In this document: one piece after another, positions 6,447 through 19,048 of the stretch
Position numbering within the stretch: the stretch's first letter is position 1
Layout: each line of letters begins with the position of its first letter
Sequence record: OR780565.1
Reading direction: 5' to 3' (one strand)
Length of the DNA: 64,000 nucleotides
From: Escherichia phage DCP2
The notes under the pieces: model-generated
The model's input: the letters and a program-made list of their open reading frames with translations, nothing else
What the model was told of the DNA's origin: nothing
Database searches by the model: none
Made by a program: the position numbers and the translations under genes

Positions 6447-7451
6447 TTAAAATGTAAACAGAATATTGATTTCTTCTGTCTGATCCATTGCCATGATAAT
6501 AGGTGGCCTATTTTCCATATAAATCATTTCGCCCGAATGCCTCATTAAATCTTCTGGATCATAATAATCCTTTTCAGCTTTAACGTTTGGGTCATTTGGA
6601 TGAACTTTAGCTTCAAGAGGATTGGTGATTATTGATATTTGTCTAAATCCTTTATTTCCCGGTAATGCAGCATCAGGAAAATAAACTGAATCTAAATATG
6701 CTTTAAAACGGATAGTATTTGCCTTAACACGGTAAATTAATCCAAAATCATCTTGTTGCCAAGTGAGATTATCTTCATACCCCCATCTAGTTGGGTCTTC
6801 TTTTAATTCCTCAGGCCAAGGAACTACGATATATTCATTTGTGCATCTATTTATAGATACATCAGGCGGAATCTCAAAAAGATATTCCCAAACATATCCG
6901 TCTCCAGGTTCGATTGTTCCTTCCGCGTCTCCTCGACCTTCAGGAGGAGTCATTGACCTAACAGAAGGAGTCCATTTTCCACCTAACTTAATACATTCAT
7001 CCTTGTCAGTCAAAGATGTTATTGAGCATGTTCCTGTGTCAGGAACATCTAAACAACGATATACTAGCCATCCTGCGCCTGATTCAGTAGCATTGTAAGG
7101 AGCTGAGTTACATACTACAATATCGTTAATTCTAAATGTGTATGGATCCGGATATCTAGTATCTCCCCAATCTCTACGAGGAATAACCGCATCAAGCATA
7201 GATGGAAGAACCTTTACGGTTCCCATCATATGAGTCCACATGTCAGTTACACCCAATACAGAATCAGTTGGATAAGGTGGAGCAAAGCCCACCTCATTTT
7301 CATTTGATGACCACGGTTCTGATCTTCCAAATGTGATAAAGATAGTGTTTTTATCCGGACCACTCCCAATTGAATTATAAAAATTCAACATTTTTTCTGT
7401 TCTAAATTTTGAAGTAACTATCGCACGATAGATAACACTTGAATCATTCAT
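6447..7451 (-). CDS. 8: Baseplate wedge protein gp8
   Basis: 334-aa ORF, same length as T4 gp8; synteny. Confidence 0.8.
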   Translation of the reverse strand: MNDSSVIYRAIVTSKFRTEKMLNFYNSIGSGPDKNTIFITFGRSEPWSSNENEVGFAPPYPTDSVLGVTDMWTHMMGTVKVLPSMLDAVIPRRDWGDTRYPDPYTFRINDIVVCNSAPYNATESGAGWLVYRCLDVPDTGTCSITSLTDKDECIKLGGKWTPSVRSMTPPEGRGDAEGTIEPGDGYVWEYLFEIPPDVSINRCTNEYIVVPWPEELKEDPTRWGYEDNLTWQQDDFGLIYRVKANTIRFKAYLDSVYFPDAALPGNKGFRQISIITNPLEAKVHPNDPNVKAEKDYYDPEDLMRHSGEMIYMENRPPIIMAMDQTEEINILFTF

Positions 7452-10400
7452 CTATTTTAACCTGTGTTGGATTTTCAGGGTCTCTTGGATTTCCTATATT
7501 ATCTTTTAGACGTTTATTAACTAAATCCCTAAACTGTGCAAATGTTGTTCCAGATGCGTCAAATAGAGGACTCATTAACTTGCGTCGTTCAGAAGGCAAT
7601 TGACCTTGAAATATTGAATTACTATTTTCAGCATTATAGTCATCAGGAAGAGGATATTTTACACCAGCCATTGGGCCAGGTTCATAAATTGCTTCTCCTG
7701 TCACTGAATCATGTTCAATTTCGCCAGTTGGAGTTAATTTAGCTACTCTATCAGCATATTCAGTAGGCAATCCAGAATCCCATTTGTAGTTTTTGTATTT
7801 ATTAATTATAGTCTCTGTGTGTTTAAGAGTTAAACCAACATTAATAAACATCGTTAAAAGGGTAATTGCTATAAATCCAAATCCTACTGGATGAACAAAA
7901 CGAATAACGTCAGATTTCCAGCGAGAAGAAGGTAAATTGGATTTAATTTTCATTACATAATATGATCGGCTTCTATTAATATAGTCTATATTATTTTGAA
8001 GCAAATCCTTTCCTTTAACACCACGAATAATTTCGCCTTCAAAACTCGGAAGTCTTTCTGCTTTAACTTCTTGACCAGCAATTAATCTTCCCAAAAGATT
8101 ATGAATAGTTACGGTCCATTGCAATTTACCATTAGAATAACTTCTTTCTATATAAGTAACATTACATCTTCCTGTGGCTGTATAAATCGTTTGTCCTACC
8201 AAATCTTCAGTTAAAGAATCAGATTGAACGATTATATCGTATTCAGTACCAGCACCAGATTCAATTTCAATTTCAACTTCTTCATTATAAAGAACTTTAA
8301 AAAGAAATTTGTATGATGCTTCAATTCCTTTAGTAGAATAAAAATCATAGCTACGTGATTCAAAAAATCTTGCAACAGCATCACGTTTGTCAGCATTTAA
8401 ATAAATGTTTCTTTTATATATCTCTGACCACAAATATTCCCATGCATGCTCTTCTCGTGGATATTTGTTACGAATTAAATTTCGTAAATTGTTATACTGA
8501 GTTCCATATCCATCAGAAAGATATTGAATATATGCTTCGCAAAATGCCTCAAAATTCGAATCTTGTAGTAAATAAGAATCAGGCATCATTGTGCCAATCA
8601 ATGGTCTTAAATCAGGGTCAGCTAATCCGTGCTCTTCTTCTGGTGACCAAGGAGTCTCATGCTCTTGGTTTTGTAAAAATGCTTTTAAAAATATTCCAGT
8701 TGGCTTCCAAATTATTTCAACCGTGTCTCTCACTCGATAGTTAAAATCATAATAAGAAATTATTTCACCAGAGGATTTATAAAAAAGCATCCCAGACGCA
8801 TATTTTTTAAATCCCGTGAATTTAACGTTTGGCATTACTATAGTGCAATCGCCGTCATCCCAGTATTCATGAACTAATCTATCTGGCGATGTTTCTGGAA
8901 AATTTTCAATAACTTTAGTATATTTTAAATCTGCATAAACTACCACAGCCCTATTAGAGTTGTTTATCCAGCACCGTGTATTAGACTTTTTAGACCAGTT
9001 AAAGAATGGTTCTGCATAGTATTTCATTGGCTGAGGCGTAAAAGTTTCCCAATCAGACTTTTCATCTGCTATAAATGCCATCATATGATAATGCTTATCA
9101 GCTAACCATTCACGAGGAAATTCATATTTAACGGCACCGATTAACTGATATTTTGCTACAGTTTCAGGGTCATTAACAACGTTATCATTTAAAAATTTAA
9201 AATTACTCGAAGATAGAGAAACTAATTTACCATCAGTTGACATATTCGCATACCCAGGTTGAATACGTCTTCTTTCTTCTTCAGTGTTGCCAAAAACTCT
9301 TTTCCACGTTTTTGTGTCATGATTTAAAACATATATTCCTTTATCAGTAGAATCAATTATTTTTGACGTTCTAGGATTAGCATTTAATGTTTCAACTTCA
9401 CCGATAATAAGAGCAAAAACTTTATCACCAATAGAATCCATTTTATAGCATACTGCTTTAGGATTTCCAGTTATAGTCATTGTATCAGGTTCAAATAGCC
9501 TTTCCGAATATGTTGGAGATAATGGATCAGAATCTATAGGTGCATTACTCGTTTTTATGTATCTAACTTTGTCTCTGGCGACAACGTAAATGTAATCATC
9601 GGTGCAAGTAATAGCTTCAGCTATACGATACACGTTTGCAGGTAATGTAGCATAAGTACCAAAGATTTCAACATCAAATCCCAAATGAAGTTGATCACCA
9701 AGTTTAGCGAATGTTATGTCCTGCGAACTAAATCTGACATCATCAGCTGACCATCTAACATCAGTAGATTTGCGGCCATAGAAAATCTTGTCGTATCCTA
9801 GAACGTATGTTGTGCTCGCAGATTGGTAATATACAGTCTTAGATAAAGGATATCCTACACGGTCATTGAAGAGCTTTACAGCTTTCCAGGTTTGACCTTT
9901 ATCATTGGATACTTTAACTACAGGTTGATAACGCTCAAAAAGATATAGAATCCCTTCTGATTCCATCAAATAAACTCGATTAATATCCTTACATACTTGC
10001 TGAATAGAACCTTGTATTTCATGATACTCATTTTCACCAATAATAAAATTACTTATTGATGAAACATCAGCATATGATGGGCTGAATTGGAATGATTCAT
10101 TCATCAATGCAGCCATTATAGTATCATTATTAAAATTAACATAGTCAGAATTATTAAGAGTAAATTTTTCCTGAATGAATTTATTAGCTAATTGCATTTC
10201 AATCATGTTTTGAAATGTATAAGCGTTTGTAGCAAAAGTTTCAAACTCTTCGGTATAAATCCAATCAGACTGCTCAAAATCCTGTGCAGCTGTAGCTACT
10301 CTAATAATGTACGATGTCAATGGATTAGCATTATCAAAAAAGAAGCTGTTATTTGCAGTATATCCTAAGTTAATCCATCGGTATTGATTGCTCGGGAGAT

Positions 10401-15080: not shown

Positions 15081-15654
15081 AAGATTTCTCCATTATACGT
15101 ATAAGGTCGTTCATAAATGAATTGATGTCTGATTTTGCTATTATTTTTATTTGACGAAGTTTTTCATTTTCAAGAACAGCAGCTTCATACGTATCGACCG
15201 CAGCAAGTGCTCCTTCATATTGAGGATATTTTCTAGCTTTATCGCCTTTGTCATACCAAACATATGGATTATCATCGTATGATATTAAATTATAAAATTT
15301 TTCACCATTCTCATTCACATGATATACTATTTGGTCTCCACCTACATTTTTGTATTTTTGTATAGATGCTTGATAAGCAGCTTCTTGCGAAGTAATCCAT
15401 CCATAATACGGATCATAATTATCATTACACATCAATAAAACCCAATACAACTGTGGATTTCCATATATAGCATTTGCTAATTCTTCCGGGCGTGGTGAAC
15501 CTTTAATATAATAAGTACGTAAACGGTATCCCGCAAGAGCGCGTTTGAAATAGTCTTTATAGTTTCTAAAAATATCTGTCATAGGAATAGTCGGCGCGTT
15601 TTTATTCACCGTTTTGGCCGCATATTCAATCGGATCAAAAAATGTAAAGAGCAT
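15064..15654 (-). CDS. 53: Baseplate wedge protein gp53
   Basis: 196-aa ORF, same length as T4 gp53; immediately upstream of gene 5. Confidence 0.75.
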   Translation of the reverse strand: MLFTFFDPIEYAAKTVNKNAPTIPMTDIFRNYKDYFKRALAGYRLRTYYIKGSPRPEELANAIYGNPQLYWVLLMCNDNYDPYYGWITSQEAAYQASIQKYKNVGGDQIVYHVNENGEKFYNLISYDDNPYVWYDKGDKARKYPQYEGALAAVDTYEAAVLENEKLRQIKIIAKSDINSFMNDLIRIMEKSYGNDK

Positions 15655-15667
15655 GGGCCCTCCTGTT

Positions 15668-15675
15668 TATAAATA
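15668..15675 (+). promoter_or_regulatory. Late promoter TATAAATA for gene 4
   Basis: Exact TATAAATA about 27 nt upstream of the gene 4 ATG. Confidence 0.55.
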
Positions 15676-15682
15676 TATTATC

Positions 15683-15690
15683 TATTTATA
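15683..15690 (-). promoter_or_regulatory. Late promoter TATAAATA (minus strand) for gene 53
   Basis: tatttata on plus strand is TATAAATA on minus, about 30 nt upstream of the gene 53 start. Confidence 0.5.
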
Positions 15691-15701
15691 AGGAGAATCC
15701 A

Positions 15702-16154
15702 ATGGCATATTCTGGAAAATGGGTTCCTAAAAATATATCAAAATATAGAGGTGACCCTAAAAAAATTACGTATAGATCAAATTGGGAAAAATTCTTTTTT
15801 GAATGGTTAGATAAAAATCCAGAAATTATTGCATGGGGTAGTGAAACAGCAGTAATTCCTTATTTTTGTAATGCAGAAGGGAAAAAACGTAGATACTTCA
15901 TGGATATTTGGATGAAAGATTCTTCTGGACAAGAATTTTTTATTGAAATAAAGCCTAAAAAAGAAACACAACCACCAATTAAACCAGCACATCTAACAAC
16001 CGCAGCGAAGAAAAGATTTATGAATGAAATTTATACATATTCCGTTAATACTGACAAATGGAAAGCAGCTCAAGCTTTAGCTGAAAAGCGTGGAATAAAA
16101 TTTAGAATTTTAACAGAAGATGGATTACGAGCTCTTGGCTTTAAGGGGGCATAA
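15702..16154 (+). CDS. 4: Head completion protein gp4
   Basis: 150-aa ORF; size and position match T4 gp4. Confidence 0.75.
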
Positions 16155-16981
16155 TGGCTATTTTTCAAATAATTAATGAAAGCACTCCCCAAGTTCCAAA
16201 GGTTAAGCAATCATTAAACGAAAAGAAATGGATTCAGATAGGTCTTGAATACAAAAAGGCCAAAGCAAAAGGAATGACAGGAAAGCAATTTGCTGAAGAA
16301 AGAGGAATCAAATACTCTACGTTTACTTCGGCAATGTCAAAATATGCTTCAGGAATTAAAACAGCTGAAAAGATTCAAAATCTTGAATCAAAACCAATGA
16401 ATAAACTCAATAAGCAAGAAAGACAACTGCTTATGATAAATTCATTCAGACAAACATTGCGTGATAAAATTCGTAATGAAGGCGCAGCAATTAATAATAA
16501 AACCAGAAAGTGGTTTGCTGAAACTATTAAGCAGGTAAAAGGACATAAAGTTGTTCGCCCGCAGCCGGGACGAATATATGCTTTTGCTTATGATGCTAAA
16601 CACAAGGAAACTCTTCCTTATTGGGATAAATTTCCTTTGATAATTTACCTTGGTTTAGGTAAACATAATTTAATGTACGGATTGAACTTGCACTATATTC
16701 CACCTAAAGCTCGTCAACAGTTTCTAGAAGAGCTTTTAAAGCAATATGCAAATACACCTACTATTACTAATAAAACGAAATTGAAAATTGATTGGAGTCA
16801 AGTGAAAGGATTTAGGGGTGCAGACCAAATGATTAAGGCATATATACCTGGTAATATTATGGGTAGCCTAGTTGAAATCGCCCCGAAAGACTGGGCGAAC
16901 GTTGTGTTAATGCCACTCCAAAGCTTCTACTCCAAAGGAAAACGTTTCTCTGCAAACAAAGTTTGGAGCAATGTACGATGA
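16154..16981 (+). CDS. 2: DNA end protector protein gp2
   Basis: 275-aa basic ORF; size and position match T4 gp2. Confidence 0.75.
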
Positions 16982-17637
16982 ATTATGAAAAAATTTATAA
17001 TTCACTAATTGATAGGGCTCGCAATAGAGCCCTTACTGGATATAAAGAAAGACATCATATTATTCCGAAATGTTTAGGCGGTAGTAATGATGCTTCTAAC
17101 TTGGTTGATTTAACTCCAGAAGAGCATTATGTTGCACATCAACTATTAGTAAAAATACACCCAAATTCTTTAAAATTATCTTATGCGGCCATAAAAATGA
17201 CGGTTTCAACTAAATATGTTAGGAGAAATAATAAAGTTTATGGTTGGTTAAAAAGAAAACATGCAAATAATATTTCAAATACACAAACTGGACGAAAATA
17301 TTATAATAATGGTAAAAGATGTATAAAATTGCATGATGGAGATATAATTCCTGAGGGATTTATTTTAGGAAGAGGATGGAGTCCGACACAAGGCACAACT
17401 CATTCTAGAAAAAATGATACATTTAAAAACAAAAAGCTTCAATCTGCTTTAGCTAATAAACGGTGGGAAAAAGAAAAGAAAATAATGTTAGATAACTTTG
17501 GAGTTAGCACTATTGATGAAGCAAAGAAAATTGTTCTTGATTTTAAATCAACTTGTCATCCAAGATATTGGCGAAAGCCAACTTTAGAAAAATTTCCATT
17601 TATGACTTCTGCTCGTTTAAGAAGTCTAATAAATTAA
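16963..17637 (+). mobile_element. Free-standing HNH homing endonuclease-like gene between genes 2 and 3
   Basis: HNH motif ERHHIIPKCLGGSNDASNLVDLTPEEHYVAH; overlaps the 3' end of gene 2. Confidence 0.7.
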
Positions 17638-17743
17638 TTCTATTATCTTCCATTCTTTTCTATTGTTTGTTCTAATTGGAATTGAATGGAAGGGACTTAG
17701 ACCCATTATACCACCAACATTTATAAAGCATTATGAGGAATAT

Positions 17744-18274
17744 ATGTCACAAGCTCTGCAACAAATTTTTAACCAAGCAAATACAACTAACTTTGTAGTA
17801 TCAATACCACATAGTAATACTACATCTGCTTTTACTTTAAATGCTCAGTCAGTTCCTATTCCGGGAATTAGGATACCTGTTACTGATACCGTGACTGGGC
17901 CGTTTGGACTAGGCCGAGCACAGCGTCCAGGAGTTACATTTGAATACGACCCACTCATCGTGAGATTTATAGTTGATGAAGAGCTTAAGTCGTGGATAGG
18001 AATGTATGAATGGATGCTAGGAACTAGTAACTATCTTACAGGCGAAAATACTGCCCAAAAAACAGGTCCTGAATACATTACGCTTTACATTTTAGATAAT
18101 AGTAAAACTGAAATCGTGATGTCAATAAATTTTTATAAGCCCTGGGTTTCTGACCTGTCTGAAGTAGAATTTAGCTACACAGAAGATTCAGACCCAGCCT
18201 TAGTATGCACAGCAACGATTCCTTATACGTATTTTCAAGTAGAAAAAGATGGCAAAATTATAGCAGAAGTTTAA
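17744..18274 (+). CDS. 3: Tail completion / sheath stabiliser protein gp3
   Basis: ORF 17663-18274; internal Met gives 176 aa as T4 gp3; synteny. Confidence 0.7.
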   Translation: MSQALQQIFNQANTTNFVVSIPHSNTTSAFTLNAQSVPIPGIRIPVTDTVTGPFGLGRAQRPGVTFEYDPLIVRFIVDEELKSWIGMYEWMLGTSNYLTGENTAQKTGPEYITLYILDNSKTEIVMSINFYKPWVSDLSEVEFSYTEDSDPALVCTATIPYTYFQVEKDGKIIAEV

Positions 18275-18323
18275 TGCTTCAGTTTCATGTGTTATAATCT
18301 TAACTAAATTTGAGGAGAAACAT

Positions 18324-19048
18324 ATGAAACTAATCTTTTTAAGTGGTGTAAAGCGTAGTGGAAAAGATACTACCGCAGATTTTATCATGAATAATTATTC
18401 TGCAGTTAAATATCAACTTGCTGGTCCTATTAAAGATGCATTGGCTTATGCATGGGGTGTATTTGCAGCAAACACTGACTATCCTTGCTTAACTCGTAGA
18501 GAGTTTGAAGGAATTGACTATGATCGTGAGACTAATTTGAATTTGACTAAATTAGAAGTAATTATGATTATGGAACAAGCATTTTGCTATCTTAATGGTA
18601 AAAGCCCAATTAAAGGTGTGTTTGTTTTTGATGACGAAGGAAAAGAATCAGTTAATTTCGTAGCATTTAACAAAATTACTGACGTTATAAATAATATTGA
18701 AGATCAATGGTCAGTCCGTCGTCTGATGCAAGCCCTAGGTACGGATTTGATTGTTAATAACTTCGACCGCATGTACTGGGTAAAATTATTTGCTTTAGAT
18801 TATCTTGATAAATTTAACTCAGGTTATGATTATTATATCGTTCCTGATACCCGTCAAGATCATGAAATGGATGCGGCTAGGGCGATGGGTGCTACAGTAA
18901 TTCATGTAGTTCGTCCTGGTCAAAAATCCAATGATACACATATTACAGAAGCTGGATTGCCAATTCGTGATGGCGATTTAGTAATTACAAACGATGGTTC
19001 TCTTGAAGAACTTTTTTCTAAAATTAAAAATACACTAAAGGTACTATA

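Follow-up and report, generated by a model that had tools for sequence, protein, structure and literature searches.

The gene 2–gene 3 locus and its Mob-family protein

The window analysed here comprises 64,000 nucleotides (nt) of Escherichia phage DCP2 (OR780565.1; one strand, 5' to 3'), and the subject of this report is an open reading frame (ORF) lying between genes 2 and 3 that belongs with the homing endonuclease genes of T4-like phages. The T4 late cluster at this locus runs in the order genes 5 and 53 (- strand), followed by genes 4, 2, the ORF, 3, 1, 57A and 57B (+ strand). The mechanical ORF spans 16963..17637 (+), begins with TTG and encodes 224 amino acids (aa). The ORF listing agrees with an earlier note made from the sequence alone, which had described a 224-aa ORF with an HNH motif between genes 2 and 3, and the two neighbours were identified by PHROG and Pfam. 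Coordinates below are those of the window unless another locus is named, and the features are as follows.

15668..15675, + strand: late-promoter consensus TATAAATA upstream of gene 4 (exact match)
16154..16981, + strand: gene 2 (DNA end protector gp2), 275 aa against 274 aa in T4 (PHROG 429, E 4e-80; RB32 and T4 annotation)
16918..16933, + strand: divergent gene 2 patch, QSFYS against QQFVS in T4, with 10 substitutions in 16 nt, which travels with the endonuclease gene (alignment)
16963..16981, + strand: replacement gp2 tail GTT TGG AGC AAT GTA CGA TGA against native GTC TGG TCA AAT ATC TAA (allele comparison)
16978..17637, + strand: endonuclease gene, Mob family, 219 aa (PHROG 655, T4 match, fold match and predicted model)
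17014..17033, + strand: coding-sequence hairpin AGGGCTC GCAATA GAGCCCT, -13.5 kcal/mol, 36 nt after the ATG (folding, 15 orthologues)
17047..17139, + strand: HNH catalytic motif ERHHIIPKCLGGSNDASNLVDLTPEEHYVAH, residues 24-54 (invariant residues in 34 relatives; predicted model)
17622..17637, + strand: endonuclease 3' end AAGTCTAATAAATTAA, in which the displaced native gene 2 tail survives in degenerate form, its TAA being the ancestral gene 2 stop (allele comparison)
17638..17743, + strand: native gene 2–gene 3 intergenic region, 106 nt, unaltered by the insertion (same length and near-identical sequence in carriers and non-carriers)
17744..18274, + strand: gene 3 (tail tube terminator/sheath stabiliser gp3), 176 aa (PF06841, Phage_T4_gp19, E 1.5e-12; PHROG 45; annotations)

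The junction reads ...AAAGTT TGG AGC AAT GTA CGA TGA ATT ATG..., where the ATG at 16978-16980 shares nucleotides with the gene 2 stop TGA at 16979-16981 (ATGA), lies 9 nt downstream of a GGAG (16965-16968) and is the annotated start in all annotated relatives (RB32, SF2-1, HY03 and fPS-2). TTG 16963 was rejected for these reasons and ATG 16978 is the likely start, therefore giving a gene of 219 aa (16978-17637) that overlaps gene 2 by 4 nt, not by the 19 nt that the earlier note had reported.

PHROG 655 ('homing endonuclease') matched the ORF at E 9e-59 and a large protein database held 2445 relatives at E<=1e-20, indicating that the ORF is not a chance one. Approximately 24 clusters of these relatives were full-length and the others shared only the N-terminal half, with conservation past residue ~115 confined to orthologues associated with gene 2. 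The motif follows the pattern ERHH...N...EH...H, in which H26, H27, N41, H50 and H54 were invariant among the 34 relatives. A tblastn search of phage genomes returned five matching places in T4, the best being mobB (45% identity over the N-terminal 114 aa, E 1e-22), and mobE of RB7 was also matched. The AlphaFold model, built on the 34 relatives, had a mean predicted local distance difference test (pLDDT) score of 90.3 and placed the HNH core (strand 24-27, strand 42-45 and helix 47-60) at pLDDT of about 95. By its motif and this strand-strand-helix core the protein falls within the HNH (beta-beta-alpha-metal) nuclease superfamily. The predicted layout consisted of an N-terminal HNH domain (~1-130), a low-confidence linker (~131-155) and a helical C-terminal domain (152-218), and thus includes the linked C-terminal domain typical of Mob proteins, for which DNA binding is presumed. 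Foldseek comparison with viral models identified T4 MobB (E 3.4e-11) and MobC (E 1.3e-6).

General HNH models gave weaker results. When an orthologue profile was run against solved structures the motif aligned weakly to HNH domains (E 0.024-0.5) and I-HmuI gave no significant sequence match, while the best Foldseek matches in the PDB were again HNH domains (prob 0.91, E 0.34, a weak match). Pfam thresholds were missed by both HNH_5 (17.8 bits; cut-off 27.5) and HNH (16.5 bits; cut-off 21.4), six of seven orthologues matched PF01844 only at E>=0.0009, and NCBIfam gave only a sub-threshold IscB HNH match. The Pfam HNH models fail because the family is too divergent, and it is the motif, the model and Mob homology that place the two-domain protein in the T4 Mob family of free-standing HNH homing endonucleases, as a member of which it would be expected to act as a nuclease. 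It is an uncharacterised member of a known family that has been annotated publicly since the RB32 genome of 2006, where it appears as RB32ORF146c, 'similar to mobB; not conserved from T4 position'. RB32 has two mob-like HNH genes by the count of Petrov et al. (PMC2993671), and a review of T4 mobile elements makes no mention of a post-gene-2 endonuclease (PMC2988022).

The DCP2 protein was 100% identical to those of SF2-1, JE01 and OES_C-1/2/3. No paralogue was found in the window. In other Tequatrovirus genomes a paralogue occurs at another locus, for example in MN895435 (teqhal; 7397-7678), with 66-69% identity over the first 94 residues only, which suggests that a shared HNH module is attached there to another C-terminal domain.

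The possibility that the ORF is encoded within an intron was rejected, as an Rfam scan of 15600-18400 matched no family, group I introns included, and the ORF has its own start overlapping the gene 2 stop. An intein was likewise rejected because the reading frame differs from that of gene 2. With no intron model and a simple 659-nt indel separating carriers from non-carriers, the gene is free-standing.

Occupied, empty and decayed alleles

A Tequatrovirus survey with a 2.3-kb query spanning the gene 2–gene 3 region matched 512 phage records, of which 36 (about 7%) were covered in full and carried the endonuclease gene while the others matched as two pieces with 71% coverage. T4 represents the empty allele. 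Empty and occupied Tequatrovirus alleles differed by a clean and exact 659-nt indel that left the 106 nt before gene 3 unaffected. Occurrence was sporadic in all three genera checked, with carriers making up 11 of the 58 records matching a Dhakavirus query and 5 of the 57 matching records of Lazarusvirus-like Acinetobacter phages; in both groups the flanks of carriers and non-carriers were 97-99% identical. An IMG/VR scan with gp2 returned 53 loci, comprising empty alleles and distant genera only, with no Tequatrovirus carrier. Free-standing homing endonuclease genes are optional, mobile insertions between conserved T-even genes, and the earlier note had proposed an optional insertion on that ground. 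The junction comparison that it called for bears this out, given the minority of carriers, the precise indel, the empty T4 allele and the decayed copies described below; the contrary case that it had named, an ORF present in all relatives, does not hold, since most Tequatrovirus records are empty.

Decay was found at several stages. FL23 and FL44 share a 1-nt deletion at window position 17157 that splits the ORF (FL23, L059 2379-3037), and in Manna the stop is lost so that a 432-aa ORF fuses the endonuclease to gp3 in frame (L060 2379-3674), with sequencing error being possible for the 1-nt changes. CT01 has an in-frame deletion of 486 nt (162 codons; window 17017-17502) that begins within a hairpin arm and removes the HNH motif (L061 2379-2552). 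A distant T4-like metagenomic contig (L073 2501-3184) holds an orthologue directly after a gene 2 whose product is 44% identical, and its ORF stops at codon 79. Among the 36 near-identical Tequatrovirus copies, 33 were free of damage in the search tables and five were read and found intact, the exceptions being the frameshifted FL23 and FL44 and the stopless Manna.

Both alleles were read in three genera, and in each the insertion point directly followed the K-V-W codons (AAR GTN TGG) that gene 2 conserves; in the empty T4-type allele it falls between TGG and TCAAATATC. Past this point the tails differ: Tequatrovirus carriers read TGG AGC AAT GTA CGA TGA against native TGG TCA AAT ATC TAA, Dhakavirus carriers TGGAAGAAGGCATAATG against native TGGAAGAATTCATAA, and Lazarusvirus carriers TGGAAGAGATGA against native TGGAAGAACTGA. 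In Tequatrovirus the change of the serine codon from TCA to AGC gives GGAG and the CGATGA gives ATG, so that the tail brought by the element holds both the endonuclease GGAG (16965-16968) and its start codon (16978-16980). Replacement of the gp2 tail is tolerated because residues after K-V-W vary freely between genera. At the other end the displaced native tail persists within the endonuclease frame. Manna ends in AAGTCAAATATCTAA and keeps the exact native GTCAAATATCTAA, Lazarusvirus copies end in TTGAAGAACTGA, Konradin retains GAAGAACTGA of the Lazarusvirus gene 2 tail, and the end in the window, AAGTCTAATAAATTAA, is more degenerate than those of Manna and Lazarusvirus. These alignments indicate that the gene 2 tail is imperfectly repeated on either side of the element, the origin of which is intragenic and not strictly intergenic. 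The placement of the element between genes in the earlier note therefore holds in that it adjoins genes 2 and 3, and needs amending in that the insertion lies inside the last gene 2 codons.

The same site is used across the Straboviridae. At E<=1e-40, tblastn identified 76 records with full-length orthologues (51-100% identity), and among the matches listed (60 of the 76 records) all adjoined the DNA end protector gene and nearly all overlapped its annotation. The position after gene 2 was confirmed locus by locus in at least 12 Straboviridae genera, the loci coming from Moonvirus, Dhakavirus, a VR25-type phage, Winklervirus, Kanagawavirus, Karamvirus, Roskildevirus, Gualtarvirus, Muldoonvirus, Lazarusvirus, Hadassahvirus and one metagenomic contig. 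Junctions read in seven genera had the start codon overlapping or abutting the gene 2 stop (ATGA, TAATG or a 1-nt spacer), and annotated coordinates at the other loci gave the same 1- or 4-nt overlap. Amino acid identity of the endonuclease between genera was 50-73%, in comparison to 45-78% for gp4, gp2 and gp3, and because these divergences are close the association with the gene 2 locus is, by this measure, an old one. The ratio of non-synonymous to synonymous substitution (dN/dS) was 0.05-0.27 in every comparison, in both halves of the protein and even between near-identical copies, indicating that the protein is under purifying selection.

Other features of the surrounding region were also recorded. 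The native gene 2–gene 3 intergenic region contains a stem-loop at 17646-17693 (CTTCCATTC... / ...GAATGGAAG, -17.4 kcal/mol) that begins 10 nt after the TAA and is common to carriers and non-carriers; Dhakavirus seems to have a similar long-range stem, and the structure may be a 3' structure of the gene 2 mRNA or a regulator of gene 3. Two 12-nt indel polymorphisms among Tequatrovirus, one in gene 1 (dNMP kinase; window 18637-18648, 241 against 237 aa) and one in gene 57A (about 19266, 76 against 80 aa), were unlinked to the endonuclease gene.

Co-conversion, candidate cleavage site and expression

A clear mosaic was found in Konradin (Lazarusvirus), whose sequence matches that of the empty Lazarusvirus Apostate at 98-100% identity through gene 2 and resumes this match with the first base past the endonuclease gene. 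Its last ~55 nt of gene 2 and its whole endonuclease gene are 96-100% identical to Morttis (Hadassahvirus), the flanks of which are otherwise far more diverged from Konradin. The left crossover was located at L065 1944-1950 and the right one within TTGAAGAA, an 8-nt match between the donor endonuclease 3' end and the recipient gp2 tail. On this pattern of identity, Konradin acquired the gene recently from another genus, with co-conversion on one side only.

Within Tequatrovirus, eight carriers and five non-carriers were compared column by column over 15700-18300. There were 140 variable columns, and the only fixed differences between carriers and non-carriers were five, all at 16963-16973. The divergent patch at 16918-16933 was present in all eight sampled carriers and, in a short-query search, in approximately 15 of about 467 non-carrier records, and is probably a co-converted donor tract. 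SP21535 (L002 2312-2400) and about 14 further records are endonuclease-free and combine the carrier-type patch with a native T4-type tail; such genomes could represent the ancestral haplotype, could have recombined in the 29 nt that separate patch and junction, or could have arisen through loss. In Dhakavirus, QL01 and LHE83 had no substitutions between them over 1180 nt upstream or over the 430 nt past the endonuclease gene, and 5 within the final 93 nt of gene 2. The Konradin mosaic, the linked patch and the Dhakavirus clustering thus amount to comparative evidence of the co-conversion that accompanies Mob-type homing endonucleases. The claim of mobility in the earlier note is upheld to the same extent, through the mosaic and the tight linkage of the 16-nt patch to the gene.

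Further endonuclease genes were seen in the vicinity. Konradin has another between genes 4 and 2 (L065 518-1168), Providencia phage PSTRCR_121 has one upstream of gene 4 (L066 86-757), and several Lazarusvirus genomes have annotated Seg-like genes close to gene 1; the 53/4-2-3-1 cluster looks like a hot spot for endonuclease genes.

With regard to the target, a cleavage site at the gene 2–gene 3 junction region of empty phages, as the earlier note had supposed, is plausible from these alignments. Self-immunity must, if the element homes, depend on the junction or on the ~50-nt tract before it, because carriers and non-carriers share the remaining sequence. A one-sided left tract of ~50 nt in three genera would fit a cut up to ~55 bp upstream in gene 2, while joining by microhomology at the tail, as in Konradin and Manna, would fit a break at the tail itself. 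The comparisons do not separate a cut at the junction from one up to ~55 nt upstream, and both would agree with a target in the junction region.

Expression of the gene can be considered together with that of gene 2. A late promoter equivalent to that upstream of gene 4 is annotated in phage fPS-2, and a search for TATAAATA returned no match between 15668-15675 and the endonuclease gene, so that no late promoter of its own was found. The upstream promoter is probably the source of a gene 4–gene 2–endonuclease transcript, in which the endonuclease gene would be promoterless like mobE. A second exact TATAAATA lies at 15683-15690 (- strand), back to back with the first in the 47-nt gap between genes 53 and 4, and the two are presumably divergent late promoters of both units. 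The start/stop overlap, conserved across genera, suggests that translation of the endonuclease is coupled to that of gene 2. An AU-rich hairpin at 16979-17004 (TGAATTATGAA AAAA TTTATAATTCA, -7.8 kcal/mol) encloses the endonuclease start codon and has a similar counterpart in Winklervirus X20, other genera being without it; it could limit independent initiation and enforce coupling to gene 2.

The GC-rich coding-sequence hairpin at 17014-17033 was more stable than dinucleotide shuffles (z -2.9) and was present in all 15 orthologues examined, with differing arm sequences and, in some genera, a shifted codon register; that of the metagenomic contig is displaced about 15 nt downstream. Synonymous-codon shuffles equalled the observed stability in at most 3.6% of trials (<=0.036) for 11 of the 15 orthologues, and since shuffles so rarely reproduce the hairpin its explanation as a by-product of the RAxxRAL peptide was rejected. 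In a control set of 72 other Mob-like genes the median fraction was 0.35 and 25% reached p<=0.05, and on this basis a hairpin general to Mob genes was also rejected. By analogy with T4 mobE, we propose that the structure may act as an attenuator or roadblock of endonuclease expression.

Interpretation, known systems and significance

In view of what was observed of its family and anatomy, its optional distribution and decayed copies, the purifying selection acting on it and the co-conversion or mosaic tracts, the ORF is very probably a free-standing Mob (HNH) homing endonuclease gene that inserted near the end of gene 2 and spreads by homing. Nuclease activity, cut position, mode of expression and the role of the hairpin are parts of the proposed course as follows. 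The element brings a substitute gp2 tail and stop that spare gene 2, the same tail also holds its own ribosome-binding site (GGAG) and ATG, and its frame ends in the displaced native gp2 tail and stop. The gene would be co-transcribed late with genes 4 and 2 and translated in coupling with gene 2, and its expression would probably be held down by the conserved hairpin that starts 36 nt after the ATG. In a mixed infection the protein would nick or cut the empty allele inside or close to the 3' end of gene 2, no more than ~55 bp from where the element inserts, and recombinational repair from the carrier would copy the gene together with a short stretch of gene 2. Carriers would be immune because both the insertion and the recoded tail disrupt their copy of the site.

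Several points weigh against this interpretation. Endonuclease divergence roughly tracks that of the flanking genes, and much of the history may be vertical descent and loss as opposed to frequent invasion. The left tract boundary near -48 to -55 could be the cut site or merely the first well-conserved crossover block. A canonical intrinsic terminator was rejected for the hairpin in the window, which has no T-run/U-run and fails a terminator scan, and column-wise covariation of the stem is weak to modest because its register shifts between genera. Our literature search found no paper on this protein and no cleavage, nicking or inheritance experiment with it.

Similarity in divergence to the flanking essential genes, presence at one site across two subfamilies and at least 12 genera, and strong purifying selection would all be expected of an ancient resident of the gene 2–gene 3 locus, inherited vertically, repeatedly lost, no longer homing and kept for a benefit to the phage such as competitor exclusion or another nuclease role. 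We consider this improbable, given that empty alleles are not deletion scars and possess an intact and different native gp2 tail, of which a degenerate copy lies at the endonuclease 3' end; the recent acquisition in Konradin with its co-converted tract, the tight linkage to the gene 2 patch and the low proportion of Tequatrovirus carriers also speak against it. Decayed copies such as those of FL23/FL44, CT01 and the metagenomic contig raise the alternative of a dead or decaying homing endonuclease that persists since its deletion would harm the gene 2 end or gene 3 expression, and the element-supplied gp2 tail and stop would indeed disfavour imprecise deletion. We consider such an inert ORF very unlikely in view of the low dN/dS values found even between near-identical copies, the invariant catalytic residues in 34 relatives and the undamaged state of most Tequatrovirus copies, and the copy in the window is itself full length and identical to six others. 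The location beside head-completion genes 4 and 2, together with the late expression expected there, might also suggest a packaging-associated HNH protein resembling the terminase HNH helpers of HK97-like phages. This idea was rejected because the gene is dispensable, being missing from T4 and about 93% of Tequatrovirus records; its relatives in sequence and fold are Mob homing endonucleases and, to our knowledge, T4-type packaging uses no HNH helper factor, leaving this explanation with next to no likelihood.

The preferred interpretation, a homing Mob gene at the gene 2 end, has a close parallel in T4 MobE, which lies between nrdA and nrdB and is likewise of the Mob family, free-standing, promoterless and dependent on an upstream gene. 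Both genes have an early coding hairpin, located 27 nt after the AUG in mobE and 36 nt after the ATG in the post-gene-2 gene. The mobE hairpin is a weak terminator that stops 30-50% of transcripts, and MobE nicks the neighbouring conserved nrdB about 120 nt from its insertion with co-conversion of flanking markers (PMC2790892). The two differ in their C-terminal domains and presumed target genes (gene 2, not nrdB), in the lack of a U-tract in the post-gene-2 hairpin and in the location of the post-gene-2 element inside the end of a coding sequence, overlapping its stop; MobE nicking was demonstrated by experiment, whereas the post-gene-2 protein is known here from sequence and model. Among T4 proteins the nearest paralogue in both sequence and predicted fold is MobB (alpha-gt/alpha-gt.2 locus), with similarity mainly in the HNH domain and a different genomic position; no target is known for MobB itself (PMC2988022). 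The mobE gene of Aeromonas phage Aeh1, inserted within nrdA, is cited in the same review (PMC2988022). The intron-encoded enzymes I-TevI and I-HmuI share the layout of catalytic domain, linker and DNA-binding domain, and disruption of their recognition sites by insertion confers the kind of self-immunity that is proposed here; unlike them, the post-gene-2 element is not in an intron (no Rfam match; simple indel). I-TevI is a GIY-YIG enzyme, unlike the HNH post-gene-2 protein. Aeh1 mobE illustrates a Mob-type gene inside a host coding sequence that does not kill its function and is tightly regulated in translation; it divides nrdA into two reassembling polypeptides, while the post-gene-2 element displaces and replaces only the last three gp2 codons.

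For annotation, the gene should be taken to start at the ATGA overlap, and the presence of the element alters the gp2 C-terminus. That homing endonuclease genes give rise to mosaicism and marker exclusion among T4-like phages is well known, and one more Mob gene is unsurprising; specialist interest lies in the family-wide site fidelity, the self-supplied gp2 tail, the hairpin and the cross-genus transfer. Taken together these features may reflect a site-faithful lineage that has occupied the last gene 2 codons since before the Tevenvirinae/Twarogvirinae split, passing through cycles of homing, decay and re-invasion that include jumps between genera. Without intron or intein, such a lineage would use its replacement tail as its own translation start, re-use the tail and stop of the host gene and tune its expression by a lineage-specific hairpin. 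We hold this broader picture to be quite possible, at a little short of an even chance. If true, it would constitute a third way, beside introns and inteins, of residing harmlessly inside a host gene. Mob enzymes are the least characterised of the T4 endonucleases, and a mapped gene 2 target would add a data point on them. The locus provides a natural system in which one orthologous endonuclease occurs at one site throughout a whole family, with occupied, decayed and empty alleles and a cross-genus transfer, and in which target co-evolution, co-conversion tract length and cost-minimising anatomy are directly testable.

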